Shown piece after piece: positions 24,211-37,611 of a stretch of DNA of 64,000 nt. This DNA comes from Dongiaceae bacterium (GTDB lineage: Bacteria; Pseudomonadota; Alphaproteobacteria; Dongiales; Dongiaceae), in assembly GCA_050180895.1 (NCBI GenBank), contig JBFXDS010000017.1:3559-67558 (forward strand), given 5' to 3'. A program made the translations under genes and the position numbers. Within the stretch, counting starts at the first letter, position 1. Every line of letters starts with the position of its first letter. The notes beneath the pieces were generated by a model. It saw nothing but the letters and a program-made list of their open reading frames with translations, had not been told where the DNA came from and did no database searches.

Positions 24211-24214
24211 GGCG

Positions 24215-24727
24215 TCACCCGCTTCCCGCCACGACCCGGGTCTTGACGTTCTGCGCGTCTCTCAGCGCGATGAAGAAAGGATCGATGGCGAGGGCGCGGT
24301 CGACCATCGCCGTGACCTGTTCCCAGGGCGCGGCGCTCGTCACCGCGATCGTGAACCGGGTTTCCAGCGGCGCGGCCGAATTGCCGCCGACGCCGAGCAT
24401 GGCGCCGTCGTCGAAATCCATCTCGACATCGACATCGATCGCGTCGATCGCGATGCCCTCGCGGGTCGCCGCGAGCTTGATGCCGATCGCGACGCAGCCC
24501 ACGAGACCGGCGCGGATGAAGAAGCCGGGCGTCGGGGCCGTGCCGTCCCCGCCGATGCCCTTGCCCATGTCCATGACGGCCTCATGACCGCCCTGACGGA
24601 CCCTGCATGTGAGGCCGTCGCCAAGATGCCCGTTCGCCCGGACCGAGCTGAAGGCCGCGTTCGGCTTCTTATGGAAAACAGCGATGATTCGTTCCTGCGC
24701 GGCCCGAATCTGGGCATTGCGGTCCAT
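24215..24727 (-). CDS. OsmC family peroxiredoxin-like protein
   Basis: Start set at Met 24727 inside ORF 24215..25045. GGDGTAPTPGFFIRAGLVGCVAIGI and the C-terminal half are OsmC-like. 4 nt upstream of the methyltransferase. Confidence 0.6.
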   Translation of the reverse strand: MDRNAQIRAAQERIIAVFHKKPNAAFSSVRANGHLGDGLTCRVRQGGHEAVMDMGKGIGGDGTAPTPGFFIRAGLVGCVAIGIKLAATREGIAIDAIDVDVEMDFDDGAMLGVGGNSAAPLETRFTIAVTSAAPWEQVTAMVDRALAIDPFFIALRDAQNVKTRVVAGSG

Positions 24728-24869
24728 GGCGCCAATCCTCCGCCGAGCGGGGCTTCGCCCCCATATGAGCCCAGTACGACCGTGGCGAACAAGGGAGCCG
24801 ATGTGGCGGACCACATCGGCGCCTCCTGGCGCCGCCGGAAGCGATACCACGATCGCCTGCGCCTCCGCG

Positions 24870-25292
24870 TCAGTCCTTGGGAACGATATCCGGATTGAAG
24901 GCGATCTCCCACAGATGTTCGTCCGGATCCTGGAAGTAGCCGGCGTAGCCGCCCCAGAATGTCCTCTGCGCCGGCTTGACGATCCTGGCCCCAGCTTTCG
25001 CGGCCTGCGCCATGACGGCATCCACCTCGGCCTCGCTGCCGACATTGTGGGCGAGGCTGAACTCCGTGGGGCTGCGGGCGGACCGGGGGATACCGACGTC
25101 GTGGGCGAGATCGTCGCGCGCCCAGATCGCGAGCTTCAAGCCGCCCTGCAACTCGAGGAAGGCGACGGCGCCGTGCTCGAACTCCCTGCCGACGATCCCC
25201 TGGGTCGGAAACCCGAGTCCGTCCCGATAGAAGGCAAGCGACCGTTCGAGGTCGTCGACGCCTAGGGTGATCAGCGTGATCCGCGGCTTCAT
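24870..25292 (-). CDS. VOC (glyoxalase/bleomycin-resistance) family protein
   Basis: MKPRITLITLGVDDLERSLAFYRDGLGF..FWGGYAGYFQDPDEHLWEIAFNP. Confidence 0.8.
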   Translation of the reverse strand: MKPRITLITLGVDDLERSLAFYRDGLGFPTQGIVGREFEHGAVAFLELQGGLKLAIWARDDLAHDVGIPRSARSPTEFSLAHNVGSEAEVDAVMAQAAKAGARIVKPAQRTFWGGYAGYFQDPDEHLWEIAFNPDIVPKD

Positions 25293-25587
25293 GGAACGCC
25301 TCCGTGAGTGCGATTGGGCTTTTTGCGACGTTCCAGCTTACCTCGACCCGCGGCATGGGCACGCTGGACGTCTTGAAGCGAAACGGCCAAGCAGCGGACG
25401 AGTTGCACGCCCGGGTCGGGCAAAGGGCAGGATTCGCCCGCCGGATCGCCGGACCGCCGGCCGCTGCGCCAAATGTCGGTGGTTCGCCGAGCCGGGTTCG
25501 CATAACCTGGGGGCGAAGGCACAATCCATCCATTCGCCCGAGCCGGCGGACATCTGCGCCGGCCGAAACTCTTCAGGAGGAACGCTC

Positions 25588-26121
25588 ATGACGGGGAAAC
25601 TCATTTCGGGTCTTGTCGCCGTGTATCTGGCTGTCGCCCTGACTCCCGACAGCGCCGCCGGCTGGGATCCCGCCAACGAGAAGCTGGCGCACAACGCGAT
25701 CGCGGAATTCAAGAAGGCGGATCCGGGCATCGAGACCTTCTTCAACGAATCCCATGGCTATGCCGTCTTTCCCGAGATCACCAAGGGCGCCATCGGCATC
25801 GGCGGCGCCCAAGGCGACGGCACGGTCTTCGAGGGCGGCAGCAGCATCGGGTCCAGCACGATGACGCAGGTGACCATCGGCCTGCAGCTCGGCGGCCAGA
25901 CCTACCGGGAGATCATCTTCTTCAAGGACAAGACCGCGCTCGACAGTTTCAAGGCCGGAAACTACGAGGTCGCGGCGGGCGCATCGGCCATCGCCCTCAA
26001 AGATGGGGCTTCGAAGACCGCGGCCTACGACAACGGCGTCGCCGTCTTCACCATGGGTACGGGCGGCCTCATGTTCGAAGCCAGCATCGGCGGCCAGAAG
26101 TTCAGCTACGAACCCAAGTAG
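25588..26121 (+). CDS. lipid-binding SYLF (YSC84/DUF500) domain protein, secreted
   Basis: RBS AGGAGG then MTGKLISGLVAVYLAVAL; GYAVFPEITKGAIGIGGAQGDG..QVTIGLQLGGQTYREIIFF..GGLMFEASIGGQKFSY. Confidence 0.7.
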   Translation: MTGKLISGLVAVYLAVALTPDSAAGWDPANEKLAHNAIAEFKKADPGIETFFNESHGYAVFPEITKGAIGIGGAQGDGTVFEGGSSIGSSTMTQVTIGLQLGGQTYREIIFFKDKTALDSFKAGNYEVAAGASAIALKDGASKTAAYDNGVAVFTMGTGGLMFEASIGGQKFSYEPK

Positions 26122-26176
26122 GGGATCGTCCGACCGCGCCGACGGGCCTTCCGCCGGCACGATCGGACATCCGCTT

Positions 26177-26395
26177 CAACCGCGGATGAACGCCAGCGGA
26201 TCGGCGTTGAACTCGTCCTGGTGCGTCTGCGGCAGGCCGTGGCCGCCGCCCGGATAGACCCTTCGGCTTGGCGTCGGCGACGATCTTCACAGACGGCAGC
26301 GCCGAGGCGCCGATCGGCATGATCTGATCGTCGTCGCCATGGAGGATGAGGGTCGGCACGTCGATCCTCGCAACTTTCGCAAGACGTCCCGGACG
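26177..26395 (-). pseudogene. C-terminal relic of an alpha/beta hydrolase, frameshifted
   Basis: VPTLILHGDDDQIMPIGASA..KIVADAKPK in one frame and VYPGGGHGLPQTHQDEFNADPLAFIRG* in another. There is no N-terminal catalytic half. Confidence 0.6.
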
Positions 26396-26439
26396 TGGCG
26401 GTCTTTCGCCCGCCATGGCCGCCGCGCGGCGGCCATGAT

Positions 26440-26997
26440 CTACAGGCCGAATGTCCGCTTTATCCGGTCGGCACACTCCTGCGGCGTGGCGCGGCTCGTG
26501 TCGACTTCGAGATCGTAGGTCATGTCGGTGTGGACGCGGTCGTATTGCCAGCGCGCCAAGCCGATCATGCGGTCCCCGCGTTGACGCTCCCGGGCTTCGA
26601 GAACCTCCAACGGGGCGAAGACGCCGACCCGGACGACATCGAAGGGGGACAGGAGGTCCGCATACTCCGCCTTGGCGCTGCCGAGCAGGACATCGTCCAC
26701 GATCAGGTTGTTTCCCTGCCCGGCCATGGCGGCGATCGCGTGCCGCATGCCGCGGAAGGCCCGCGCGGCGACCGATCCCTCCTTGATGACGACCAGCACC
26801 TTGCCGCCCTCCTGCGCCGTCTCGAAGACGAGTCCGTCGGGATGACCGAAACAGGCCTCAGGCAGCATATCGAGGAATGCATCCATCTCGACATGGAGGA
26901 AGGGCTCGGCCGCCATTGCCTGCAACGCCTTGGCGATCGAGCTCTTGCCGGCGCTGCCGACGCCGTTGAGCAGGACTATCCGAGCCGTCGTGTTCAA
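26440..26997 (-). CDS. chloramphenicol phosphotransferase-like (CPT family) P-loop kinase
   Basis: RIVLLNGVGSAGKSSIAKAL..FLHVEMDAFLDMLP..LIVDDVL..WQYDRVHTDMTYDLEVDTS. Probable TTG start at 26997. Confidence 0.7.
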   Translation of the reverse strand: MNTTARIVLLNGVGSAGKSSIAKALQAMAAEPFLHVEMDAFLDMLPEACFGHPDGLVFETAQEGGKVLVVIKEGSVAARAFRGMRHAIAAMAGQGNNLIVDDVLLGSAKAEYADLLSPFDVVRVGVFAPLEVLEARERQRGDRMIGLARWQYDRVHTDMTYDLEVDTSRATPQECADRIKRTFGL

Positions 26998-27316
26998 GGC
27001 GCACCTGTCGGGTCCGATAAGAGAAAGCGCATTCCGATGCGCTTCACGATCATCGTCAAGGCCAACGATGCGGGCTTGGCAGCGAGTGTGCTTGGGCGAG
27101 CAGCGTCTCGACCGAACGGCACGCAAGACTGCTGACAGCGGTGTGTCAGGAGCAGACGGATGAACTGCTGACAGGCGCTGATTCTTGACTATAGTCGCGC
27201 GCGTCAGACCACAGCTCGCCCTCTGCCAAAGACCCCAACCGTGACGGTGCCCGCCGGGTGGGGGATAGCGCGATTTCAAGCACTTGGCGGCGCCGCTGAA
27301 AAAAGCCGGCCGCTGC

Positions 27317-27343
27317 TGTCGATCTCGGCGCGCTCCGTTCGAC
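27317..27343 (+). promoter_or_regulatory. candidate ECF-type promoter P2: TGTCGAT-N16-CGACT
   Basis: TGTCGA 27317-27322, 17 nt, CGAC 27340-27343, about 73 nt upstream of the PhnB-like/DGPF/MFS/DUF1772 operon. Same architecture as the site at 33276. Confidence 0.55.
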
Positions 27344-27415
27344 TGTAGGAGGAAATCCAGTTCCGCCGGTCCAATTCCGGTCCGACGGCCTAACCCGAAC
27401 CATAAGGATGAGGTC

Positions 27416-27829
27416 ATGAAAGTCCAATCGTACCTGAACTTCGACGGCCGCTGCGAGGAGGCGCTCGATTTCTACCGGAAAGGGCTCGACGCCGAGGTGA
27501 CGATGCTGTTGCGGTTCAAGGACAACCCCGAAGCCGGCTCATCCGGCGGCGTCGCGCCCGGCACCGAGAACAAGGTCATGCATTCGAGCTTCCGCATCGG
27601 CGATACGGAGGTGATGGCCTCCGACGGCTACTGCCAGGGCAAAGGGACGTTCCAGGGTGTTTCGCTGGCGCTCTCGGTGGCGAGCGATGCCGAGGCCAAG
27701 CGGCGCTTCGATGCTCTAGGCGACGGCGGCAAGGTGCAGCAGCCTCTGATCAAGACCTTCTTCTCGTCGAGCTTCGGCGTGGTCGCCGACCGCTTCGGCG
27801 TGTCGTGGATGGTGGTCGTGGAGTCGTGA
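27416..27829 (+). CDS. VOC family protein, PhnB-like
   Basis: MKVQSYLNFDGRCEEALDFYRKGLDAEV..VMHSSFRIGDTEVMASD..FFSSSFGVVADRFGVSWMV. Confidence 0.8.
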   Translation: MKVQSYLNFDGRCEEALDFYRKGLDAEVTMLLRFKDNPEAGSSGGVAPGTENKVMHSSFRIGDTEVMASDGYCQGKGTFQGVSLALSVASDAEAKRRFDALGDGGKVQQPLIKTFFSSSFGVVADRFGVSWMVVVES

Positions 27830-27867
27830 CGACGTCGATCGACCTCAAACTCCAAGGAGACGCAGGC

Positions 27868-28296
27868 ATGCGATACATGATGCTGATGATTCCCAAAGGC
27901 TACGAGACGGCGGCGCCGGGCACCGTGCCGGACGCCAAGGGCGTCGAGGCGATGATGAAATACAACGAGGCCCTGCATAAGGCCGGCGTGCTGCTCGCGC
28001 TCGACGGCCTGCACCCGCCCTCGATGGGCGCGCGCGTCTCGTTCTCGGGCGGGAAGCCCCGGGTGACCGACGGGCCCTTCGCCGAGACGAAGGAGGTGCT
28101 CGGCGGCTACTGGATGATCCAGGTGAAATCCAAGGAAGAGGCGATCGAATGGGCCAAGCGCTGCCCGGCCTCGGACAACGAGGTGATCGAAATCCGTCAG
28201 GTGCAGGAGATGGAGGATTTCCCGGCCGACGTGCAGGAGGCCGCCGCCGGGTTTTCCGAGATGCAGACGGCGGCCGGGCAGCGCAGGGGATCGTGA
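27868..28296 (+). CDS. YCII-related (DGPF) domain protein, paralog 5
   Basis: MRYMMLMIPKGYE..RVTDGPFAETKEVLGGYWMIQVKSKEEAIEWAKRCP. Confidence 0.8.
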   Translation: MRYMMLMIPKGYETAAPGTVPDAKGVEAMMKYNEALHKAGVLLALDGLHPPSMGARVSFSGGKPRVTDGPFAETKEVLGGYWMIQVKSKEEAIEWAKRCPASDNEVIEIRQVQEMEDFPADVQEAAAGFSEMQTAAGQRRGS

Positions 28297-28321
28297 GACG
28301 GGCCCGTCGGCCGCCGCGGGC

Positions 28322-29779
28322 GTGTGGGAGAATTTTGTGGCAACGCACATCGACGGCAGGAAGCGCTGGCTGGCGCTGATCGTTCTTTGCCTCGGCGACC
28401 TGATGATCGTCCTCGACACGACGGTCGTGAACGTCGCCCTGCCGTCGATCCGGACGGACCTCGGCTTCTCGCAGACTGGGCTCGTCTGGGTGGTGAATGC
28501 CTACATGCTGACGTTCGGCGGCTTCCTCCTGCTCGGCGGCCGCCTGGGCGATCTCTTCGGGCACCGCCGGTTGTTCCTGCTGGGGCTGACGCTCTTCACC
28601 CTCGCCTCGCTCGCCTGCGGGCTGGCGGACACGCAGGCGACGCTCGTCGCCGCGCGCGCCGTGCAGGGGCTGGGCGGCGCCGTCGTCTCGGCCGTCGCTC
28701 TGTCGCTGATCATGAGCCTGTTCACCGAGCCGGCGGAGCGGGCAAAGGCCATGGGCATCTTCGGCTTCGTCATGGCCGGCGGTGGATCGATCGGCGTGCT
28801 GCTCGGCGGCCTGCTGACGGACGCGTTCGACTGGCACTGGATCTTCCTGGTGAATCTACCGATCGGCGCCGCGGTCTTTGCGCTCTGCGTCGTTCTGTTG
28901 CCGGGCGACCGCCGCCCGACGGCAGCGGCGCGTCTCGACATCGCCGGGGCAGTCACCGTGACGGCCTCGCTGCTGCTGGCGGTCTATGCGGTCGTGAACG
29001 GCAACGAGGTCGGCTGGCTGTCGACCCGGACGCTCGGCCTGCTCGCCGCCGCGGGAGCGCTCATGGCCATCTTCCTCGGCATCGAGGCCCGGGTCGGCGC
29101 GCCGCTCATGCCGCTCGGCCTGTTCCGGCTGCGCAATGTGTGGACCGCAAATCTTGTCGGCATCCTGTGGGCGGCGGCCATGTTTGCCTGGTTCTTCATC
29201 TCCGCGCTCTACCTCCAGCTGGTGCTCGCCTACACCCCCATGGAGGTCGGGCTCGCCTTCCTGCCCGCCAACCTGATCATGGGCGTGTTCTCGCTCGGCC
29301 TGTCGGCCAAGATGGTCATGCGCTTCGGCATCAGGTTGCCGCTGGCGACGGGGTTGCTCCTGGCCGCCGCCGGCCTCCTGCTCTTCGCCTTCGCGCCGGT
29401 CGACGGGCGCTTCGCCGCCCACGTACTCCCGGGCATGACGCTCCTCGGCCTCGGCGCCGGCATGGCGTTCAATCCGGTCCTGCTCGCCGCGATGAGCGAC
29501 GTCGCCCCGAGCGAGTCCGGCCTCGCCTCCGGAGTGGTGAATACCTCGTTCATGATGGGCGGGGCGCTTGGGCTCGCCGTCCTCGCCAGCCTTGCCGCCG
29601 CCCGCACCGACAGCCTGCTGGCGTCCGGAGCGGACTCGCTCGTCGCCCTCAACGGCGGTTACCATGTCGCGTTCGCGGTCGGCGCCGCCGTTGCGGCCGG
29701 GGCCGCCCTGCTCAGCGCCGTGCTGCTGCGCGCACGGGTGCCGGCGCCGCTGCAGGAGAGCGTGTCCACCGCATCGTAG
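28322..29779 (+). CDS. MFS transporter, DHA2 (EmrB/QacA, 14-TM) type
   Basis: LALIVLCLGDLMIVLDTTVVNVALPSI..GRLGDLFGHRR..14 hydrophobic segments. GTG start at 28322 or 28337. Confidence 0.85.
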   Translation: MWENFVATHIDGRKRWLALIVLCLGDLMIVLDTTVVNVALPSIRTDLGFSQTGLVWVVNAYMLTFGGFLLLGGRLGDLFGHRRLFLLGLTLFTLASLACGLADTQATLVAARAVQGLGGAVVSAVALSLIMSLFTEPAERAKAMGIFGFVMAGGGSIGVLLGGLLTDAFDWHWIFLVNLPIGAAVFALCVVLLPGDRRPTAAARLDIAGAVTVTASLLLAVYAVVNGNEVGWLSTRTLGLLAAAGALMAIFLGIEARVGAPLMPLGLFRLRNVWTANLVGILWAAAMFAWFFISALYLQLVLAYTPMEVGLAFLPANLIMGVFSLGLSAKMVMRFGIRLPLATGLLLAAAGLLLFAFAPVDGRFAAHVLPGMTLLGLGAGMAFNPVLLAAMSDVAPSESGLASGVVNTSFMMGGALGLAVLASLAAARTDSLLASGADSLVALNGGYHVAFAVGAAVAAGAALLSAVLLRARVPAPLQESVSTAS

Positions 29780-29820
29780 GTGCCGCCCGGCGGAATCCGG
29801 ATCGTCGACGGGAGTCCCGC

Positions 29821-30321
29821 ATGACCCTGCTTCTCGCGTTGGAGTTCGCCGCCGCCCTCGGTTGCGGGCTGGTCGCCGGCGTCTTCTTTGCCTTCTCGAC
29901 CTTCGTGATGAACGCCCTCGCCCGCCTGCCGGCCCAACAGGGCATTGCCGGCATGCAGTCCATCAATATCGCCGCGATCAATCCTTGGTTCATGACGGCG
30001 CTGTTCGGAACCGCAGCGGCTTGCGTGGTCCTCGTCGTCGCGTCGTTGCTGGCGTGGCGCGAGCCCGGCGCCGCCTGTCTCCTTGCCGGCGGTACGCTCT
30101 ATCTCGTCGGCGCTGTTCTGGTGACGATGCTGTTCAACGTGCCGCTCAATCGGGCATTGGCGAGGGTGGAGGAGTCGCGTGCCGACAATGCCGGCCGCTG
30201 GGCCGGCTACGTCGCCAGATGGACGGCCTGGAACCATGTCCGGACGGCCACATCCCTTGCGGCGACGGCATTGATCACCCTCGCGCTCTATCTGCAGGCG
30301 CGCGGCCCGACCGGAGTCTGA
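29821..30321 (+). CDS. DUF1772 (anthrone-oxygenase-like) membrane protein
   Basis: Internal Met of track ORF 28324..30321: MTLLLALEFAAALGCGLVAGVFFAFSTFVMNAL..FNVPLNRAL..WTAWNHVRT. Confidence 0.7.
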   Translation: MTLLLALEFAAALGCGLVAGVFFAFSTFVMNALARLPAQQGIAGMQSINIAAINPWFMTALFGTAAACVVLVVASLLAWREPGAACLLAGGTLYLVGAVLVTMLFNVPLNRALARVEESRADNAGRWAGYVARWTAWNHVRTATSLAATALITLALYLQARGPTGV

Positions 30322-30375
30322 CATCGCGCTCCGGGCTGCGATATCTGGAGCACACACCGGCCCGGCGACGATCCG

Positions 30376-31917
30376 TCACTTTGTGAGACGCTCCATGGGG
30401 AGCGAGAGCTGCGCGACCAAGCCCTCGGGCCGCCAGTCGCGCGAGATGTGGCCGCCGAATTGAGCCGTCATCGTCGTGCGGGCAAGCAGGCTGCCGAACC
30501 CTTCGCTTTCAGGGCGTCCCGCGAGCATCGGGCCGCCCTGCTCGGTCCAGGTCAGCCGCAGCTCGCCGTCGGCCACGGACCAGCGGACGTCGACGCGCCC
30601 TTCCGGCGACGACAGGGCGCCATACTTGGTCGCGTTCGTGGCGAACTCGTGCAGCAGGAGGGCAAGGCTCGTCACCGCACTCCCGCCGACCGGCACGCCG
30701 GGTCCGTCGATCAGGACACGCTCGCCATGGCCGCTTTCAGCATCGCTGTAGGGCGCGACGATCGTGCGGACCAGGGCCTCCAAGGTCGTCGCCCGCGCCG
30801 CCGCGTCTCGTTCATCGCCGAGATCGAGCAGGGTCAATTCATGGGCGCGCGAGAGGGCAGCCAGCCTTTGCCGAACGGTCTCGGCGATGCCCTCCGGTGC
30901 GCGGGCGGTGCGCGCGCTCAGGGTCACCACCCCGCCCACGAGGGTGAACAGGTTCTTGACGCGATGATTCATCTCCCGGAGAAGAAGAGTCTGCCGTTCC
31001 TGCAACCGCTTGCGCTCGGTGATGTCGCGCGCGATCTTCGACGCGCCGACGATTCCACCGTGGACGTTGCGGATCGGCGATACCGTCAGCGAGACCTCGA
31101 CCAGACCGCCGTCCTTGCGCCGGCGCACGGTTTCGTAGTGCTCGATCCGCTCGCCCTGACGAATGCGCTCGAGGATGCGAAGCTCCTCGTCGCGGCGATC
31201 GCCCGGGATCATGATCGCGATCGACTTGCCGATCATCTCGTCGGCGGTATAGCCGAAGAGGCGTTCCGCTCCCCGGTTCCAACTGGTGACGATGCCGCGC
31301 GAATCCGTGCTGACGATCGAGTCGTCGGAGGATTCGACGATCGAGGCCAACCGCTGTCCGATCTCGTCGGCCTGCCACCGTTCGCTGATATCGACGAGCA
31401 TGTTGACCGCCCCGACGACGACGCCCGATTTGTCGTAGAGCGGCGTCGGATAGGGAAGAAAATGAACCCGGCTGCCATCAGGCCGCTCGGCGATCGCATC
31501 CATGCCTCGGATCGATCGACCTTCCCTCAGCGCCATGGCCATCGGACATTGGTCATGCGGCATGGGTGTCCCATCCGGCCAGTACAGCCGCCAGGAACCG
31601 CACCATTCGCTCTTGCCCAGCTGCGGGCGACAGCCCCAGAGATCCGCGGCCGCGTCGTTATAGAACGTGATGCGGCCGGCCGCGTCCGTGGTGTAGACGG
31701 CAGCCGGCAGGGCTTCGAGCAGATCGCGGAAAGGAGGCTCCGTCCCCATCTGTTGCTCTGCGGACGCTGCGCCGCCCACCGCAGACTCGGCCTGCCGATG
31801 CGCCAGCCGCGCCAACTCGCGAACCAGAGCGGTCTGCGAGCCGACAAACTGTAATTTTTCAGATGGCATCGACTTTCGGTTTCGGACCGCGTCCAGCACG
31901 ACAACCGGCGCTGACAA
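30376..31917 (-). CDS. cytoplasmic PAS-PAS sensor histidine kinase, HWE/HisKA_2 type
   Basis: Two PAS modules, H-box [25 protein letters not shown]-terminal [20 protein letters not shown]. Confidence 0.85.
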
Positions 31918-32149
31918 GCTCGGGCGATCACAGCGACTCTAGAGGCCTACAAGTCGGGGAGCGAGTCAAGACTCAACGGTGTGCTTCTTCCGCCCGCAAC
32001 GGCACTCCTGGCCGGCGACTGCTGCCGATGACGGTCCCCCGGTTGCGGTCGAGTTGCATCCAACGCCTGGGACTTTCAGCTCAAGCGCAAGTGTGCCAAT
32101 CAGCACCGATCCCGACACCGCACGTTCCGCCCTTCACCGAGGGGCGGGC

Positions 32150-32437
32150 TCACTCGATGCGGACATCGTCCCAGAAGCCGATCCAGTGATCGACCTGCTT
32201 CATCGAGGCGCGCGGCGCCTCGTAGGACCAGGCGGCGCGCTCGCTGCGCGCGGCGCCATCGGCGACGTCGTAGAACTGCACGCCGTGTGGGCATTCGAGA
32301 TCGCTGTCCGTCTTCGGCGTCAGATGCAGCAGGTCCATCCGGACGGTCTCCCGGGGGAAATAGCGGTAGCCACCCGCCTCGATGGTGCGGTCGCTCTCCG
32401 CGATCACCTGATCGTGCCATATCGCCTTCATGATCAC
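32150..32437 (-). CDS. DUF427 domain protein
   Basis: MKAIWHDQVIAESDRTIEAGGYRYFP..CPHGVQFYDV..AAWSYEAP..IGFW. Confidence 0.7.
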   Translation of the reverse strand: MIMKAIWHDQVIAESDRTIEAGGYRYFPRETVRMDLLHLTPKTDSDLECPHGVQFYDVADGAARSERAAWSYEAPRASMKQVDHWIGFWDDVRIE

Positions 32438-32585
32438 CTTCCTCTGCCTGGGTTCTCCAGGTTGACGACGTCGGCCCCCATGCCGCTTCCCGGCACGGCG
32501 TTCGAACCTCCTCCTGCCGGCGCCAAGACGTCAAGAGGGAGTCCGACCTTCTCGTCAAAGATGCCTTGCTCATGCAGACCACCCT

Positions 32586-33011
32586 CTATATCTCCTGCGG
32601 CGGGAACTCCGGATACCGCGGCAGGTGGTCGGCGAACCGCACCCAGGGCAGGCGCCGGCTGTCCCAATAGTGGAACTGGGGCGGCATGGCATCCGGCCGA
32701 TCCAGGCTTCCGATCGTGATGTCGATGAGGCCGGGAATGAACGAGGCGGTGAAGCTGATCTGGGTGCCGCAGGTCGGGCAAAAGCCGCGCCTGGCCTCGG
32801 GCGACGAGGCATGGAGCGTCGGCTGCGCCCTGGTGAACAGGACCTGCCCGGCCTCGAACATGGCCCATGCCACGGCGGGCGCGGCACTTGCCTTGCGGCA
32901 CATGGAGCAGTGGCACAGCGCGGTCATCAGGGGCGGCCCCGTGATCTCGTAGCAGACCGCAGTACACTGGCATCCGCCGGTCGTCTTCTGCTCTTGCATC
33001 ATGGCCTCCAT
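32586..33011 (-). CDS. GFA (glutathione-dependent formaldehyde-activating / CENP-V) family protein
   Basis: GGCQCTAVCYEI..ALCHCSMCRKASAAP..FCPTCGTQISF zinc-Cys pattern. Start among Met 33011/33002/32999. Confidence 0.8.
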   Translation of the reverse strand: MEAMMQEQKTTGGCQCTAVCYEITGPPLMTALCHCSMCRKASAAPAVAWAMFEAGQVLFTRAQPTLHASSPEARRGFCPTCGTQISFTASFIPGLIDITIGSLDRPDAMPPQFHYWDSRRLPWVRFADHLPRYPEFPPQEI

Positions 33012-33200
33012 TCGTTGCCGCGGCCGACCAACTCCGTCCACCGGAGTGTTGTTCGCCAGCAAGCCACCCTAGCAGGATGCTCCTGACAGGCTGGTGTCAG
33101 GAGCCGACCTGCTTCCGCACGGCAAGCCGTTCATCGCGCAAGCAAACGCCGAGCGAGTCTCGATGCACGCCGGACACATGGGCACTCCTTTCGCGGTATA

Positions 33201-33227
33201 ATCGAACCGGCGGACCGGTACTCGACA
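33201..33227 (-). promoter_or_regulatory. candidate ECF-type promoter P3: TGTCGAG-N16-CGATT (minus strand)
   Basis: Minus strand TGTCGA (33227-33222), 17 nt, CGAT (33204-33201). Points at the GFA-DUF427 genes, divergent from P1, which lies 49 nt away. Confidence 0.4.
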
Positions 33228-33275
33228 GGTCCCGATAAACCTGCCGACCCAGGACATGAGGGCCAGCCGACGGAT

Positions 33276-33302
33276 TGTCGATTCGGGGTCTCTCCGGACG
33301 AC
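33276..33302 (+). promoter_or_regulatory. candidate ECF-type promoter P1: TGTCGAT-N16-CGACT
   Basis: TGTCGA 33276-33281, 17 nt, CGAC 33299-33302, 41 nt upstream of the first of four DGPF genes and the ECF sigma gene. This is an autoregulatory layout. Confidence 0.6.
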
Positions 33303-33342
33303 TAGGGGTGCCCTCCCCTTTCCCGCTGCACAGGAACCGGCC

Positions 33343-33699
33343 ATGAAGTATCTCTGTCTGATCTACAACGACGACAAGCGGCTCGACGCCATGTCCGAAC
33401 GCGAATCGCAGGCCTTCATCGACGAGCATCTCGACTATGACGAGGCGCTCAAGCGGAGCGGGCATTTCATCGCCTCCGAGGCGCTCGAGCCGGGCGAGGC
33501 GGCCACCATCGTCCGCGTCCGCAACGGCCGGCTGTCGACCACCGACGGCCCCTTCGCCGAAACCAAGGAGCAGCTCGGCGGTTTCTACCTGGTCGAGGCC
33601 CGCGATCTCAACGAGGCCATCCAGATCGCCGGCAAGATTCCCTCGGCGCGCACCGGCAGCATCGAGGTGCGGCCGGTCTGCGAGCTCACGCATTCCTGA
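33343..33699 (+). CDS. YCII-related (DGPF) domain protein, tandem paralog 1
   Basis: MKYLCLIYNDDKRLDAMSERE..VRVRNGRLSTTDGPFAETKEQLGGFYLVEARDLNEAIQIAGKIP..GSIEVRPV. Confidence 0.85.
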   Translation: MKYLCLIYNDDKRLDAMSERESQAFIDEHLDYDEALKRSGHFIASEALEPGEAATIVRVRNGRLSTTDGPFAETKEQLGGFYLVEARDLNEAIQIAGKIPSARTGSIEVRPVCELTHS

Positions 33700-33724
33700 C
33701 CTTGCCGCCGCCTAAGGAGCCCAC

Positions 33725-34099
33725 ATGAAATTTCTCTGCCTGGTCTACAACGACGAGCAGGCCCTCGACGCCATGCCGCGCGACGAGTTCGAGGCCTTCT
33801 CCCACGAGCATGTCGTGCTGGCCGACGAGCTGCAGAAAGACGGTCGTTCCGTCACCGCGGAGGGTCTGCAGCCGGTCAGCACGGCGAAGACCGTGCGCGT
33901 CCGCAACGGTCGGCTGTCGACCACCGACGGCCCCTTCGCCGAAACCAAGGAGCAGCTCGGCGGCATCTACCTCTTCGAGGCGGCGGATATCGACGAGGCA
34001 GTCCAGATCGCGGCGCGCATTCCGATGGCCCGCCTCGGCTGCATCGAGGTGCGGCCGGTCTGGGACCTGCGCCGCCACGAGCCGCGGGTCGGCCGCTGA
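33725..34099 (+). CDS. YCII-related (DGPF) domain protein, tandem paralog 2
   Basis: MKFLCLVYNDEQALDAMPRDE..VRVRNGRLSTTDGPFAETKEQLGGIYLFEAADIDEAVQIAARIP..GCIEVRPV. Confidence 0.85.
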   Translation: MKFLCLVYNDEQALDAMPRDEFEAFSHEHVVLADELQKDGRSVTAEGLQPVSTAKTVRVRNGRLSTTDGPFAETKEQLGGIYLFEAADIDEAVQIAARIPMARLGCIEVRPVWDLRRHEPRVGR

Positions 34100-34156
34100 C
34101 TCCGGCTTTCTGCGACAACCTGCATCGACACCAACGTCGAAGACGAGGAGCGAACC

Positions 34157-34504
34157 ATGAAATATCTCTGCCTTGTCTACTTCGATGAACGGACGTTCGG
34201 CAGCAATCCCGAAAGTCCGTCCGACAAGGAGTGCTTCGCCTATGGCGAGGAGCTGCGCGGCAGCGCGCGCTATATTGTCGGTCAGGCGCTGCAGCGATCC
34301 GAGACCGCCACGACCGTCCGTGTACGCAACGGCAAGGTGACGACCACCGACGGCCCCTTCGCCGAAACCAAGGAACAGCTCGGCGGCTTCTATATGATCG
34401 AGGCACGCGATCTCGACGAAGCCATCCGGATCGCCGCGAAGATACCGCCGGCGCGCGTCGGCAGCATCGAGGTGCGGCCGGCCCGCGAACTCGATCTCTC
34501 ATAG
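34157..34504 (+). CDS. YCII-related (DGPF) domain protein, tandem paralog 3
   Basis: MKYLCLVYFDERTF..VRVRNGKVTTTDGPFAETKEQLGGFYMIEARDLDEAIRIAAKIP..GSIEVRPA. Confidence 0.85.
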   Translation: MKYLCLVYFDERTFGSNPESPSDKECFAYGEELRGSARYIVGQALQRSETATTVRVRNGKVTTTDGPFAETKEQLGGFYMIEARDLDEAIRIAAKIPPARVGSIEVRPARELDLS

Positions 34505-34518
34505 CGCGCATCCGGCTG

Positions 34519-34875
34519 ATGAAGTATCTGTGCCTGATCTACGCCGACGAGAAGCGGCTCGACGCCATGTCCGGGAGCGAATGGGACGCCTTCTGGCGCG
34601 AGTGCACCGCCTGCGATCAGGCGCTTCGGCAGAGCGGCAGCCGCATCGCGGCCGCGGCCCTCCAGTCCGTCCGCACGGCGACGACGGTGCGGGTCCGCCA
34701 GGGCAGACTGTCGACCACCGACGGCCCCTTCGCCGAGACCAAGGAGCAGTTGGGCGGGTTCGTCCTGATCGAGGCCCACGATCTCGACGACGCGCTCCGC
34801 GTCGCCGCCCTGCTTCCGCCGGCGCGCATCGGCAGCGTCGAGGTGCGCCCGGTGCGCGAGCTCGATCTCTCCTAG
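34519..34875 (+). CDS. YCII-related (DGPF) domain protein, tandem paralog 4
   Basis: Internal Met of ORF 34231..34875: MKYLCLIYADEKRLDAMSGSE..VRVRQGRLSTTDGPFAETKEQLGGFVLIEAHDLDDALRVAALLP..GSVEVRPV. Confidence 0.85.
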   Translation: MKYLCLIYADEKRLDAMSGSEWDAFWRECTACDQALRQSGSRIAAAALQSVRTATTVRVRQGRLSTTDGPFAETKEQLGGFVLIEAHDLDDALRVAALLPPARIGSVEVRPVRELDLS

Positions 34876-34890
34876 CCGCGGACGGCGTCG

Positions 34891-36138
34891 GTGGGCGAGG
34901 AGGCAACACGACAGGCGCGCGCAACCGTGGACGCGGTCTACCGCGCAGACTCGCGCCGCGTCCTCGCCACCCTCATCCGCCTGCTCGGCGATTTCAACCT
35001 CGCGGAGGAGGCGCTGCACGAAGCCTTCGCCGCCGCCGCGGAGCGCTGGCCGCGCGACGGCGTGCCGGCGAATCCGCGGGCTTGGCTGGTCTCGGCCGGC
35101 CGCTTCAAGGCGATCGACGTCATCCGCCGGCGCGCCCGCTTCGATGCCTCGCTGGCCGAGATCGCCGCGCAGATCGACGATGCCGCACCGGCGCCCAGGG
35201 CGGATGACGAGGAGTTGGAGGACGACCGGCTGCGGCTGATCTTCACCTGCTGCCATCCGAGCCTGTCGCCCGACGCGCAGGTGGCGATGACGCTGCGCGA
35301 GGTGTGCGGCCTGACCACCGAGGAAATCGGTCACGCCTTCCTCACGGCCGCGCCGACCGTTGCCCAGCGCATCGTGCGCGCCAAGGCGAAGATCCGCGAC
35401 GCGAAAATTCCGTATCAGGTGCCGGCGCGCGACGAGCTGGCGGAGCGGCTCGACAGCGTGCTCCACACCGTCTACCTGGTGTTCAACGAGGGATACTTCG
35501 CCTCGTCGGGCGCGTCGCTGACGCGGCACGACCTGTCGGGCGAGGCGATCCGCCTGGGGCGGCTGCTCGTCGAGCTGTTGCCGGAGCCCGAGGCGATCGG
35601 GCTCCTGGCGCTGATGCTGCTGCACGAATCGCGCCGCGCCGCGCGGACGACCGCGGACGGCGAGCTGGCGCTGCTGGACGAACAGGAGCGCGCGCTCTGG
35701 AACCGGGACCAGATCGCGGAAGGATCGGCGCTGGTGCAGCGCGCGCTGTCGTCCCGCCGCTTCGGCCCATACACGCTGCAGGCGGCCATCGCGGCGGTCC
35801 ACGCCGAGGCGCCCGATGCCGGTGCGACGGACTGGGCGCAGATCGTCGGTCTCTATGACGTGCTGGCGCGGGTGGATCCCTCGCCGGTGATCGCCTTGAA
35901 CCGCGCCGCGGCGGTGGCGATGCGCGACGGTCCGGCGGCGGGTCTCGCCCTCATCGACGCCATCCTGGCGGGCGGCGACCTCGCGGACTACCGCCTGGCG
36001 CACGCGGCGCGGGCCGACCTGTGCCGTCGGCTGGGGCGGACGGCGGAGGCCCGGGCCGCCTACGAGCGCGCCCTCGCCCTTACGCGGCAGGAACCGGAGC
36101 GGCGCTTCCTCGCGCGGCGGCTGCGCGAACTGGAGTGA
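34891..36138 (+). CDS. ECF sigma factor with ~200-aa C-terminal TPR-like extension (ECF42-type)
   Basis: 415 aa, GTG start. Sigma2 (AEEALHEAFAAAAERWP..NPRAWL), sigma4 (MTLREVCGLTTEEIGHAF..TVAQRIVRAK), then YLVFNEGY and a helical repeat extension. No anti-sigma gene is adjacent. Confidence 0.85.
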   Translation: MGEEATRQARATVDAVYRADSRRVLATLIRLLGDFNLAEEALHEAFAAAAERWPRDGVPANPRAWLVSAGRFKAIDVIRRRARFDASLAEIAAQIDDAAPAPRADDEELEDDRLRLIFTCCHPSLSPDAQVAMTLREVCGLTTEEIGHAFLTAAPTVAQRIVRAKAKIRDAKIPYQVPARDELAERLDSVLHTVYLVFNEGYFASSGASLTRHDLSGEAIRLGRLLVELLPEPEAIGLLALMLLHESRRAARTTADGELALLDEQERALWNRDQIAEGSALVQRALSSRRFGPYTLQAAIAAVHAEAPDAGATDWAQIVGLYDVLARVDPSPVIALNRAAAVAMRDGPAAGLALIDAILAGGDLADYRLAHAARADLCRRLGRTAEARAAYERALALTRQEPERRFLARRLRELE

Positions 36139-36180
36139 CCGGCCGACCGGCCGCGATCCGGCAGGGGCGGAGGTGCCGCC

Positions 36181-37035
36181 TCAGCGCGGGCGGCTGGCAG
36201 AGCGCTTGGCGGGGTCGGTCGCGGCGTAGGCGTCGTCGCCGTCCTGCGGGCGGGCCGGAAGCTCCGAGCCCTGCGCCGTCACCAACTCGGCGAGCTTCGC
36301 GTTCCAACGCTCGTCCAGGCCGACGTCGCGGCCGCCCTCGACGACACGCAGGCGGGTGGCCATGCCGGCCAGCTCCTGCTGGTGCCGGCGCACCATCTGC
36401 GCCTCGCGATAGGCCCAGCGCTGCAGCTCCTGCGCCTGCCAGCGGGCCATGGCGCGGGCGAAGCGCGCCGCCGCGCCGGCGTCGCCGCCATGATCCGCCG
36501 CGCGGGTCAGGGCGCGGCTCGCCTCACGCACGTCCTGCGGCAGCTCGTCCTCGGAATCGACCAGCGGCAGGTAGCGGTCGGCGCGCGAGCGGTCGACCAC
36601 GACCGGACGGCCGGCGATCGCCGGAAACATGGTCCGCCCTTGACCCGGGGCGGCGTCGGCACGGCGCGGCATCGAGGTCGAGACTTCCCCGTCGGGGGCG
36701 ATGTGAATGTCGAAGCGGGCGATGGTCGAGGCGAAGCTGTCCCGTTCGGGATCGAGCGACACGACGCGGACATTGAGGACGATGGCCTGGGCGCCGTCGC
36801 CCGGGGCGATGATGTCGAGATGGTTGAACTCCGTCGCCGGCACCAGCCAGCTGCGATCGGCGTTGCCGTATCCGGCCGACAGATGCGACCCGGCCGGCAT
36901 GTTGCCGATGACGATGAAGGCATCGTCGCCGACGCCCAGAGTCCTGAGCGACGGCTGCAGCTCCAGCCTGACGCGCCGCGCCGCGGCGCCCGTCCCATCG
37001 ATCGTCATCCCGTGCTCCCAGCTCTCGATCGCCAC
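36181..37035 (-). CDS. hypothetical protein (N-terminal beta-rich module, C-terminal coiled-coil-like region)
   Basis: 284 aa, high GC3. GNMPAGSHLSAGYGNADRSWLVPATEFNHLDIIAPGDG resembles the PAGxxLSAG repeat module of large secreted adhesins. No signal peptide. GTG 37035 or ATG 37008 start. Confidence 0.6.
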   Translation of the reverse strand: MAIESWEHGMTIDGTGAAARRVRLELQPSLRTLGVGDDAFIVIGNMPAGSHLSAGYGNADRSWLVPATEFNHLDIIAPGDGAQAIVLNVRVVSLDPERDSFASTIARFDIHIAPDGEVSTSMPRRADAAPGQGRTMFPAIAGRPVVVDRSRADRYLPLVDSEDELPQDVREASRALTRAADHGGDAGAAARFARAMARWQAQELQRWAYREAQMVRRHQQELAGMATRLRVVEGGRDVGLDERWNAKLAELVTAQGSELPARPQDGDDAYAATDPAKRSASRPR

Positions 37036-37073
37036 GCGCCGTAATGCGGCCTGATCCGGACAATGATCGATGC

Positions 37074-37089
37074 TTAAATACTTTTTAAC
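37074..37089 (+). promoter_or_regulatory. perfect CtrA box TTAA-N7-TTAAC
   Basis: TTAAATACTTTTTAAC, 39 nt upstream of the GTG of the 36181..37035 gene, inside a ~170-nt AT-rich island. Confidence 0.55.
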
Positions 37090-37126
37090 TGCAGCGTTAT
37101 TGTCTCGAATTCTATCAAAGTATCTA

Positions 37127-37141
37127 TTAAACGCCGCTTAA
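37127..37141 (+). promoter_or_regulatory. second CtrA-like box TTAA-N7-TTAA(G)
   Basis: TTAAACGCCGCTTAAG. A further lone TTAAC half-site lies at 37190-37194. Confidence 0.4.
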
Positions 37142-37245
37142 GGTCACGGGAGAAAGACGTCGCCCTTCGCGGCAACGTGAGCGTTTACCTTAACGTTGTC
37201 TTTATGATGTCTTGCGGTGTGCCGCGCTCGGCCCCTGCGGGCCGC

Positions 37246-37611
37246 TCACGCCAGCGCGGCGCGGAGATCGGCGAGGCGGACCGGCTTGGTCAGCGTGTCG
37301 ACCATTTGCACGCCGCCCTCCGTCCCGAACAGCCCGGCCATGCGGGCATATTTCGGATTGTAGCCGGTGGTGAGGATGACCTTGGCCGTGGCTCCCTGGG
37401 CCGCCAGCCACTGCATGATCTCGATGCCGTCGACATCGGGCATGACGACATCGAGCACGATGTGGGTCGGGCCGAACTCCGCATAGACGCGGCGGAAATC
37501 GACCGAGCGCGTGCACACGCGCGCGACGAAGCCGAGGTCGGTCGCCGCCTTGCCGACGAAATCGGCGAAATCGGGCTCGTCGTCAACCACCAGCAGCCGT
37601 CGCTCGCTCAT
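37246..37611 (-). CDS. single-domain response regulator (CheY-like receiver)
   Basis: LLVVDDEPD, phospho-acceptor LDVVMPDVDG, ILTTG, LTKP. Its start overlaps the 3' end of the upstream kinase by 29 nt. Confidence 0.85.
   Translation of the reverse strand: MSERRLLVVDDEPDFADFVGKAATDLGFVARVCTRSVDFRRVYAEFGPTHIVLDVVMPDVDGIEIMQWLAAQGATAKVILTTGYNPKYARMAGLFGTEGGVQMVDTLTKPVRLADLRAALA

Follow-up and report, generated by a model that had tools for sequence, protein, structure and literature searches.

The ECF42 sigma factors of S. venezuelae reportedly include SVEN_0747, SVEN_4377, and SVEN_7131, which occur with DGPF genes, according to accounts attributed to Liu, Pinto and Mascher in 2018 and to Wu et al. 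in 2019. The adjacent DGPF/YCII gene is said to be the main target in S. venezuelae, and several DGPF copies per genome are said to be present. ECF42 sigma factors possess a TPR extension and have no anti-sigma factor (PMC6180224). The C-terminal extension is essential for the activity of the S. venezuelae members, and the YCII partner has been suspected to take part in ECF42 regulation (PMC8999054). Across clades, ECF42 has been characterized as a local regulator (PMC7776599). In S. meliloti, RpoE10 induces operons encoding glyoxalase-like and SRPBCC proteins from TGTCGG-N17-CGTC, and RpoE10-dependent starts were mapped 9 nt downstream of this motif (PMC6180224). The knockout of ECF-10 in Pseudomonas putida alters oxidative-stress and antibiotic tolerance (PMC8999054).

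The window analyzed here is a 64-kb stretch of a Dongiaceae MAG (Alphaproteobacteria). It carries four DGPF/YCII genes in tandem, followed by the gene of a 415-aa ECF sigma factor as the last gene of the string, and 5 kb upstream a second string encoding a PhnB-like VOC protein, a DGPF protein, a DHA2-MFS permease, and an Anthrone_oxy (DUF1772) protein. Judged by its sequence, the locus is a typical ECF42-type alternative sigma module, with an unusually large DGPF set and three matching predicted promoters. We consider it likely that this sigma factor drives a local regulon from three sites, comprising the DGPFx4-sigma operon, the VOC operon, and, less surely, the GFA-DUF427 genes. The features are as follows.

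27317 to 27343, plus strand: ECF42-type promoter P-voc, TGTCGAT-N16-CGAC then TG (matrix score 24.8 bits, second in the window)
27416 to 27829, plus strand: PhnB-like VOC protein, 137 aa (PF06983, E 1e-13; Glyoxalase)
27868 to 28296, plus strand: DGPF/YCII protein 5, 142 aa, divergent subfamily (PF03795, E 9e-24)
28322 to 29779, plus strand: DHA2-family MFS efflux permease, 485 aa (MFS_1, E 5e-51; TIGR00711)
29821 to 30321, plus strand: Anthrone_oxy (formerly DUF1772) membrane protein, 166 aa (PF08592, E 6e-18)
32150 to 32437, minus strand: DUF427 (NTP_transf_9) protein (PF04248, E 1e-13)
32586 to 33011, minus strand: GFA-family (Cys-rich, Zn-type) protein (PF04828, E 3e-23)
33069 to 33179, minus strand: small ORF, 36 aa, MCPACIETRS..., 6 Cys (Shine-Dalgarno AAAGGAG; directly behind the third promoter)
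33201 to 33227, minus strand: probable third ECF42-type promoter, TGTCGAG-N16-CGAT then TA (17.3 bits, third in the window)
33276 to 33302, plus strand: ECF42-type promoter P-dgpf, TGTCGAT-N16-CGAC then TA (29.6 bits, best in the window)
33343 to 33699, plus strand: DGPF/YCII protein 1, 118 aa (PF03795, E 5e-28)
33725 to 34099, plus strand: DGPF/YCII protein 2, 124 aa (PF03795, E 9e-25)
34157 to 34504, plus strand: DGPF/YCII protein 3, 115 aa (PF03795, E 5e-22)
34519 to 34875, plus strand: DGPF/YCII protein 4, 118 aa (PF03795)
34891 to 36138, plus strand: ECF42-type sigma factor, 415 aa (Pfam, AlphaFold2 model, Foldseek)

The sigma factor contains Sigma70_r2 (residues 17-83) and Sigma70_r4_2 (residues 117-168) and lacks region 3 (Pfam); it exceeds the cutoff of TIGR02937 (NCBIfam), and a protein of a Dongiaceae MAG is 100% identical to it over 403 aa. 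Its C-terminal extension of ~230 aa consists of DUF6596 (residues 186-285, E 5e-36, Pfam) and a TPR-like helical part, with a TPR_2 match at residues 370-398 that lies just under the Pfam gathering score. In the AlphaFold2 model (mean pLDDT 81.5), the C-terminal region is all helical, with helix pairs from residue 180 to 413 and 10-residue pLDDT averages mostly of 87-96, and the best structural matches of the model found with Foldseek are TPR superhelices. These results agree with the original prediction of a long helical C-terminal extension. The absence of an adjacent anti-sigma gene was also borne out: no anti-sigma candidate was found among the flanking genes. DGPF4 lies upstream, and on the other side is a convergent gene for a protein of 284 aa that lacks Pfam matches and strongly hydrophobic segments and is without homologues in the 80 related loci. 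This convergent gene recurs in one near-identical contig only. The assignment to ECF42 is based on domain architecture, gene neighbourhood, and promoter motif, and every defining feature that could be tested was found, namely, the domains, the extension, the lack of an anti-sigma gene, the DGPF neighbour, and the promoter.

The module resembles the S. venezuelae ECF42 systems in its sigma2-sigma4 core, ~200-aa TPR extension, adjacent DGPF/YCII gene, and lack of an anti-sigma factor, but here four diverged DGPF genes lie in the sigma operon and a fifth in the VOC/MFS operon. RpoE10 of S. meliloti (SMc01150) is likewise encoded in an alphaproteobacterial YCII-sigma operon, and its glyoxalase-like targets parallel the VOC operon; however, only one YCII gene instead of four is present at the S. 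meliloti locus, no efflux pump or GFA is among the targets, and the hexamers are TGTCGG/CGTC rather than TGTCGA/CGAC. Sigma factors from Pseudomonas share 68-73% identity with that of the window, and the same promoter stands before their DGPF gene. In Pseudomonas, only one DGPF gene is present; it follows the motif at a position downstream of the sigma gene, and the sigma gene is outside the motif-driven operon. The ECF41 sigma factors (M. tuberculosis SigJ and those of R. sphaeroides and B. licheniformis) also combine the lack of an anti-sigma factor with a fused C-terminal control domain and a tiny local regulon (PMC6180224, PMC7776599), but their extension is SnoaL/NTF2-like instead of TPR, and their partner genes and promoter motif are different. 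The NCBIfam SigJ model scores the window sigma factor at 26 bits, far below the cutoff of 271.

All five DGPF proteins match PF03795 with scores of 62-98 bits and bear the DGPF signature, and DGPF1 matches PA1349 of P. aeruginosa (PDB 1S7I) with an E value of 5e-40. The original prediction of five paralogs with an invariant core holds for the four tandem copies, whose pairwise identities are 53-62% and which alone share TDGPFAETKEQLGG. The fifth copy was found 5 kb upstream, where it had been placed, but its core is TDGPFAETKEVLGG and its identity to copies 1-4 is only 26-31%; from its sequence, it belongs to a different DGPF subfamily. It is 83% identical to a DGPF protein of Aromatoleum evansii whose gene also adjoins a VOC gene. 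The start of the fourth DGPF gene had to be corrected to 34519. In the closest large relative (L081), the orthologs of DGPF1, DGPF2, and DGPF3 are 84%, 87%, and 80% identical, and beyond it the nearest relatives of DGPF3 are Pseudomonas-type DGPF proteins; DGPF4 has no counterpart there and is 94% identical to an ortholog in L082. Each of the four diverged paralogs has its own orthologs elsewhere. Among 108 DGPF homologues, D68, G69, P70, E73, and E76 are 98-100% conserved, T74 94%, and F71 and K75 86%. The putative enzymes of the YciI/TftG type have a conserved N-terminal His that forms a His/Asp pair. In the 108 sequences, every His column is conserved at less than 70%, and the N-terminal helix contains no His in copies 3, 4, and 5. 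For this reason, the proteins of the window are filed as DGPF-type and not as YciI-type enzymes.

To describe the promoters, a position weight matrix was built from 60 DGPF-upstream sites, all from other genomes, with the consensus -35 TGTCGA(T/A) and, 17 bases on, -10 CGAC followed by (T/C)A. The three proposed sites, at 33276, 27317, and 33227-33201, stood this independent test as ranks 1-3 of the window (29.6, 24.8, and 17.3 bits), and the fourth-ranked match has 7.2 bits. The chance expectation per window is ~0.06 (0.063) at 17.3 bits or more and 0 at 29.6 bits in 300 simulated windows. As predicted, exactly two copies of TGTCGA-N17-CGAC are intergenic, those at 27317 and 33276; the third copy of the window (868, minus strand) is inside a gene. 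The looser TGTCGA-N16-18-CGAY has 8 matches against 1.5 expected, of which the other five lie in coding DNA; an OsmC-like gene contains one of them, and a MOSC-like gene contains another in antisense orientation. The predicted distances of 41 nt from P-dgpf to the DGPFx4-sigma operon and 73 nt from P-voc to the VOC gene are correct.

In a sample of 1.43 Mb (80 related loci and the window), 56 of the 93 sites of at least 14 bits have a DGPF gene as their immediate downstream neighbour, with a typical distance of 35-48 nt to its start. P-dgpf has the same placement as these 56 sites of other loci and aligns with its counterpart in L081, where the gene order is DGPFx3-sigma and the sigma factor is 87% identical. 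Further sites precede PhnB/VOC, SRPBCC, MFS, RND-adaptor, DUF899, SnoaL, and BNR-like genes. The proposed association of DGPF genes with the sigma gene also recurs, with at least one DGPF/YCII gene within ~3 kb in 66 of 81 related loci, and the TGTCGA/CGAC motif is found in many phyla upstream of DGPF genes that adjoin related sigma factors; in many loci, e.g., those of Pseudomonas and Variovorax, it sits after the sigma gene. DUF6596 sigma factors adjoin YciI-family genes on annotated plasmids of Streptomyces, Ralstonia, Nostoc, Chondrinema, and Mesorhizobium, often accompanied by VOC or MFS genes. The actinobacterial relative sampled, on a Streptomyces plasmid and with a sigma factor of ~50% identity, does not match the TGTCGA-N17-CGAC matrix, and therefore promoter details, as read from these sequences, differ between ECF42 subclades. 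Conservation strongly backs the sites at 33276 and 27317 as candidate promoters.

The third site, the weakest of the three and with CGAT as its -10, is probably a promoter, divergent from P-dgpf with 48 nt between the two -35 elements. Its proposed direction toward GFA-DUF427 stands in that it ranks third and can be aligned in L081, but its score is weak and the link to GFA-DUF427 is less certain. That it is non-functional and GFA-DUF427 lies outside the regulon seems to us somewhat unlikely. Such a reading could appeal to the score, the lowest of the three and one with a 6% probability of arising by chance somewhere in the window, to the CGAT, and to the related loci, of which the first 80 contain no GFA homologue and one weak DUF427 homologue (L017) behind no strong motif. 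L081 is the exception, with a GFA gene at the end of its divergent motif-driven operon (small ORF, MFS, DUF1428, ThiS-like, BNR-like, and GFA) that is only 28% identical to that of the window; its DUF427 gene is in the same neighbourhood but not behind a motif. Against this, the divergent promoter pair is kept in L081, where a 23-bit site aligns base for base with the third site around CCGGTTCGAYTAT; L001, L005, and L009 have divergent pairs as well; and CGAT is the -10 of four sites directly upstream of DGPF genes (L016, L037, L066, and L078). A Shine-Dalgarno sequence and an ATG are also conserved downstream of the third site, where the small ORF begins with MCPAC[I/V] in L081 and L052 as well. 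The versions in these two loci are 65-66-aa peptides with a hydrophobic segment; the ORF of the window has no family match and may be a degenerate copy of a gene for a small membrane protein.

For the VOC operon, the PhnB-like protein scores 52.2 bits with PF06983 (cutoff 24) but 89.5 bits with the NCBIfam YjdN equivalog, below its cutoff of 122, and these scores therefore place it in the PhnB-like family but outside the YjdN orthologs. The DHA2 permease exceeds the cutoff of TIGR00711 (244.4 versus 230.2 bits), and all drug-specific models are far below cutoff for it; DHA2 MFS homologues follow two DGPF genes in the Variovorax loci L041 and L049. A sigma-70-like promoter (10/12) at 27168-27195, 120 nt upstream of P-voc, could also serve this operon, and beside it lies the palindrome CTGACA-N6-TGTCAG, which has only two copies in the window and none expected. 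These elements would favor the alternative that the sigma factor controls DGPFx4-sigma only, with a fortuitous site at 27317 and with VOC-DGPF5-MFS transcribed from 27168-27195, perhaps under a repressor on the palindrome. We regard this as very unlikely, given that a match of at least 24.8 bits is expected 0.003 times per window and that the two promoters are compatible with each other. Moreover, the same motif immediately precedes VOC homologues in L003, L014, L017, and L065, and in five further loci (L040, L042, L043, L053, and L078) VOC homologues are part of DGPF operons; PhnB-like VOC homologues in either position occur in 12 related loci in total.

That the motif is the operator of a dimeric transcription factor co-regulating these genes, and not a promoter, is highly improbable: it does form a GTCGA...TCGAC inverted repeat with half-sites about two helical turns apart, and both strands give a match at the same site in L003, L011, and L062 and likewise at each Nostoc site, but its orientation is polar (TGTCGA always distal, CGAC 35-48 nt from the start codon), its flanks are asymmetric ((T/A)T after TGTCGA versus (T/C)A after CGAC), it accompanies the sigma gene across phyla, no conserved transcription-factor gene exists at the loci, and the S. 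meliloti starts 9 nt downstream of a related motif respond to an ECF42 sigma factor (PMC6180224).

For the ECF42 regulon, we infer the link between sigma factor and promoters in the window from association and analogy. RNA polymerase bearing the sigma factor would start transcription ~9 nt downstream of CGAC, which predicts a start near 33311 for P-dgpf. From 33276 it would transcribe DGPF1-4 and the sigma gene, a layout that suggests positive autoregulation; from 27317, the genes of the PhnB-like VOC protein, DGPF5, DHA2-MFS, and Anthrone_oxy; and, with less certainty, from 33227-33201 on the minus strand, the small ORF, GFA, and DUF427. Autoregulation is not universal, as overexpressed RpoE10 of S. 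meliloti left its own YCII-sigma operon unraised (PMC6180224). By analogy with the literature, the activity of the sigma factor would depend on its own C-terminal extension, and it would probably be modulated by a protein partner, with the DGPF proteins as the obvious candidates. The resulting regulon would be small and local, with an efflux pump and proteins that handle small molecules.

As far as can be read from the sequences, the published ECF42 traits (local regulon, DGPF partner, TGTCGA/CGNC promoter, and the glyoxalase-like and SRPBCC targets of RpoE10) are all matched, and the support for the ECF42-regulon interpretation is comparative rather than experimental. The published system gains one well-resolved example and no new system type. 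Judged by gene types only, the regulon would suit a response to stress from xenobiotics, electrophiles, or antibiotics, and the tolerance phenotype of Pseudomonas ECF-10 fits a regulon for detoxification and efflux. Since this promoter also precedes genes of the regulon type in distant phyla, the hypothesis is narrowed to small-molecule, electrophile, or antibiotic stress. A bolder reading, which we consider quite unlikely, is that ECF42/DGPF would be a horizontally mobile cross-phylum xenobiotic/electrophile cassette, in which DGPF proteins would act as ligand-binding co-sensors docked on the TPR extension and the four paralogs would widen the signals for a shared regulon for detoxification and efflux, made up of PhnB/VOC, GFA, DUF899, SRPBCC, and MFS/RND genes; if it were true, the locus would lend itself naturally to finding out which ligands belong to which DGPF subfamilies. 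ECF42 is among the most widespread ECF groups, and the picture of its signal and of the role of DGPF is unchanged by this locus. The locus is a compact case with clean predictions, with three predicted promoters and five DGPF proteins of at least two subfamilies, and it suggests the binding of DGPF proteins to the TPR domain of the sigma factor and the ligands of DGPF proteins as targets for study.

The 415-aa sigma factor is encoded by the last gene of a string that opens with four tandem DGPF/YCII genes (DGPF1 to DGPF4), and a divergent fifth copy (DGPF5) lies in a second operon headed by a PhnB-like VOC gene. The G+C content of the window is about 69%, and over 403 aa the sigma factor shows 100% identity to a protein from a MAG of the Dongiaceae, a family placed in the Rhodospirillales of the Alphaproteobacteria. 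A megablast comparison of the 9.2-kb region with plasmids yielded nothing beyond short gene-level matches, so the region is not a known plasmid, and an Rfam scan of 26400-36400 returned no RNA family. The genes are arranged as follows.

Genes of the locus and of the run of stress/detoxification-type genes upstream of it
23392-24210, minus strand, methyltransferase (stress/detoxification run)
about 24215-24727, minus strand, OsmC-like protein (same run)
24870-25292, minus strand, glyoxalase (same run)
25591-26121, plus strand, Ysc84-like protein (same run)
26440-26997, minus strand, chloramphenicol-phosphotransferase-like kinase (same run)
27416-27829, plus strand, PhnB-like VOC protein (PF06983)
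27868-28296, plus strand, DGPF5
28322-29779, plus strand, DHA2 MFS permease (TIGR00711, above cutoff)
29821-30321, plus strand, Anthrone_oxy/DUF1772 protein
30376-31917, minus strand, PAS/HWE histidine kinase
32150-32437, minus strand, DUF427 protein
32586-33011, minus strand, GFA protein
33343-33699, plus strand, DGPF1
33725-34099, plus strand, DGPF2
34157-34504, plus strand, DGPF3
34519-34875, plus strand, DGPF4
34891-36138, plus strand, sigma factor

Because the gaps within DGPF1 to DGPF4 and the sigma gene are only 14-57 nt, we read these genes as one operon. The stress/detoxification run (23392-26997), which lies just upstream of the VOC operon, carries no ECF42-type site. The histidine kinase gene is on the same strand as the DUF427 gene and 232 nt downstream of it, and the two could be co-transcribed. 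Past the sigma gene, 36181-41131 on the minus strand encodes a 284-aa orphan, a receiver-domain protein and a putative multi-PAS sensor kinase of 1182 aa. No link was found between the ECF42 module and either these genes or the PAS/HWE kinase.

In the sigma factor, Pfam recognized Sigma70_r2, Sigma70_r4_2 and DUF6596, with a TPR match just under the gathering score. The AlphaFold2 model is all-helical (mean pLDDT 81.5), residues about 215-415 form confidently modelled helix pairs, and among PDB structures it resembles TPR superhelices most closely, in agreement with the long helical C-terminal extension that had been predicted; no solved structure covers this extension. The absence of an adjacent anti-sigma gene was also borne out: the convergent neighbour, a 284-aa protein, matches no family and occurs elsewhere only in one near-identical contig, and no anti-sigma candidate was found at the locus. 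Sigma4 opens with FTCCHP (residues 118-123). Relatives from five phyla, at 33-52% identity, retain the pattern F-x-x-C-H-P; C121 and P123 are invariant, and the one exception at H122 is an N in a Bacteroidota member. Of the cysteines considered as a possible redox-sensing cluster, C121 alone is conserved across phyla, and C120, C139 and C378 are not.

The original prediction placed ECF42-type promoters at 33276 (+), 27317 (+) and 33227-33201 (−), and held that TGTCGA-N17-CGAC occurs exactly twice in intergenic DNA. The two intergenic copies (27317 and 33276) stand, and the window holds a third, at 868, inside a gene. A looser pattern gave eight matches against 1.5 expected, the five extra ones all in coding DNA. 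As a motif test independent of the window, 80 loci with sigma relatives of 64-82% identity (L001-L080) were fetched from Gemmatimonadota, Acidobacteriota, Rokubacteria/Methylomirabilota, Verrucomicrobiota, Planctomycetota, Pseudomonas, Variovorax and others, and their DGPF genes were located by profile. For each DGPF gene, the best match in the 160 nt upstream was taken with one mismatch allowed, and the resulting 60 sites gave a position weight matrix. The consensus is TGTCGA(T/A)(T/A)T, a spacer and C(C/G)G-N-(A/T)-CGAC(T/C)A, and the −10 element is usually 35-48 nt away from the start of the DGPF gene. Scored on both strands of the 64-kb window, the matrix ranked the three predicted sites first, second and third (29.6, 24.8 and 17.3 bits), the fourth-best match reaching 7.2 bits, which supports the three sites of the proposed mini-regulon. 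In 300 windows simulated by a second-order Markov model, 0.063 matches per window are expected at ≥17.3 bits and 0.003 at ≥24.8 bits, and none reached 29.6 bits.

The main rival explanation is that the motif, which is near-palindromic, is an operator. This is disfavoured, since the polarity of the motif is strict and its flanks are asymmetric, and since in Sinorhizobium meliloti the transcription starts that depend on the ECF42 sigma factor RpoE10 lie 9 nt past the −10 element (PMC6180224). The RpoE10 motif is TGTCGG-N17-CGTC (PMC6180224), whereas that of the window is TGTCGA-N17-CGAC. Near-perfect inverted-repeat sites of the ECF42 type (TGTCGA-N15-TCGACA), matching on both strands, were seen between divergent genes (L003, 8224-8251; L011, 119-146; L062, 8199-8226; and a further comparison locus, L085, 2598-2707), and may act as bidirectional promoters. 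A different palindrome, CTGACA-N6-TGTCAG, has exactly two copies in the 64 kb against none expected (27132-27149 and 33083-33100, the latter with arms extended to 33079-33104). They are found in the two intergenic regions bearing ECF42-type promoters, and a third CTGACA, a half-site at 27168-27173, is the −35 element of a sigma-70-like promoter (10/12; 27168-27195) facing the VOC operon. The palindrome looks like a putative operator of some regulator; it is absent from L001-L080.

The genes that follow the motif elsewhere were surveyed in 1.43 Mb (the 80 related loci and the window), with downstream ORFs selected by a GC3-based choice. Of 93 sites scoring at least 14 bits, 56 were directly upstream of a DGPF gene. 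Others preceded PhnB-like and other VOC genes (L003, L009, L014, L017, L055 and L065), BNR-like genes (L001, L003 and L019), genes for an SRPBCC protein (L002), an MFS permease (L005), an RND adaptor (L078) and a DUF899 protein (L046), a SnoaL gene followed by a VOC and a DGPF5-type gene (L053), and the sigma gene itself (L048). PhnB-like VOC homologues were present in 12 loci, often adjoining a DGPF gene, and two Variovorax loci carry two DGPF genes followed by a DHA2 MFS gene; on the strength of these arrangements, the 27317 operon matches a recurrent gene pattern. DGPF and PhnB-like VOC genes are adjacent, in either order, in several unrelated genomes (L053, 12301-13096; L043, 12231-13100; L078, 11995-12421; L042, 11755-12600), the DGPF gene being of the DGPF5 type in L043, L053 and L078, and this recurrence suggests a functional pair.

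The minus-strand site at 33227-33201 could be compared with L081, the closest relative with a long contig (sigma factor 87% identical). There, three DGPF genes and the sigma gene lie downstream of a 34-bit site, and 53 nt away a divergent 23-bit site faces a small ORF followed by MFS, DUF1428, ThiS-like, BNR-like and GFA genes on the opposite strand. A third matrix site of L081 precedes a DUF899 gene, and a DUF427 gene lies nearby. In an alignment of the intergenic regions, the window and L081 share 80% identity and both promoters are conserved; CGAT is found at the −10 position before DGPF genes in four loci. On these grounds we consider the third site probably functional. Among the first 80 related loci, no GFA homologue was found and only L017 has a DUF427 homologue, with no strong motif ahead of it; the GFA proteins of the window and L081 are only 28% identical. 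A riboswitch or attenuator in the 196-nt GFA leader was rejected, the leader being no more structured than shuffled sequence (z −0.42), with one local 10-bp hairpin remaining. Directly behind the divergent promoter is a small minus-strand ORF with a strong Shine-Dalgarno sequence that begins MCPAC(I/V) (window, 33069-33179; L081, near 8519; L052, near 8682). Its product in L081 and L052, where MFS or DUF899 genes follow, is a peptide of 65-66 aa that carries an N-terminal CPxC and a single hydrophobic segment; the window ORF shares only its first six codons with these and has a Cys-rich 36-aa product. The ORF matches no family, and there is no NCBIfam model for it.

DGPF1 to DGPF4 are 53-62% identical to each other. 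The core described as invariant, TDGPFAETKEQLGG, is indeed identical in these four copies, but DGPF5, with 26-31% identity to them, has TDGPFAETKEVLGG. The array is not a recent duplication: DGPF1, DGPF2 and DGPF3 each have a separate ortholog in L081 (80-87% identity) and DGPF4 has one in the locus L082 (94%). DGPF1 matches P. aeruginosa PA1349 (PDB 1S7I, a structural-genomics entry) with an E value of 5e-40. Across 108 homologues, D68, G69, P70, E73, E76 and R110 are near-invariant, T74, E108, F71 and K75 are conserved at 86-96%, and no His is conserved, which assigns the window copies, judged by their sequences, to the DGPF type rather than to the YciI-type putative enzymes. NCBIfam holds no model for these DGPF proteins. 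Counted to a distance of about 3 kb from the sigma gene, 81 related loci carry no DGPF gene (15 loci), one (40), two (20), three (5) or five (1). Four tandem copies and one distal copy are thus at the high end and not unique; L043 has five DGPF genes with a PhnB-like VOC gene among them.

A TPR extension and the lack of an anti-sigma factor characterize ECF42 sigma factors (PMC7826278; PMC6180224); their activity requires the extension, which has been proposed to respond to a protein partner, suspected to be the conserved YCII neighbour (PMC8999054). They are local regulators with synteny conserved across clades (PMC7776599). The operons induced by RpoE10 are two small ones that encode glyoxalase-like and SRPBCC proteins, and its own operon is not detectably induced (PMC6180224). 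The domain architecture, gene order and three high-scoring sites described here, with the conservation of such sites across genomes, all fit this description, which supports the locus as a further case of the published ECF42 system. The sigma factor would read the three sites, giving a regulon of three transcription units with positive autoregulation through its own operon, and, by analogy with the literature, would be controlled through its C-terminal extension. A xenobiotic or electrophile as the inducing signal is speculative, as are roles of the DGPF proteins as co-sensors or as enzymes.

More distant sigma factors (33-69% identity), on annotated plasmids and chromids, also adjoin a YciI-family gene and often VOC or MFS genes, as in Streptomyces, Ralstonia, Nostoc, Chondrinema and Mesorhizobium. 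The matrix found strong sites in Nostoc (39.5 and 28.1 bits) and none in the other four loci tested, so the hexamers in their exact form are subclade-specific. Within L001-L080, the sigma factor shares 64-82% identity with proteins of at least eight phyla, a very high level among ECF sigma factors, and DGPF5 is 83% identical to a DGPF protein of the betaproteobacterium Aromatoleum evansii. Such values speak for strong constraint on the module, for its frequent horizontal transfer, or for both.
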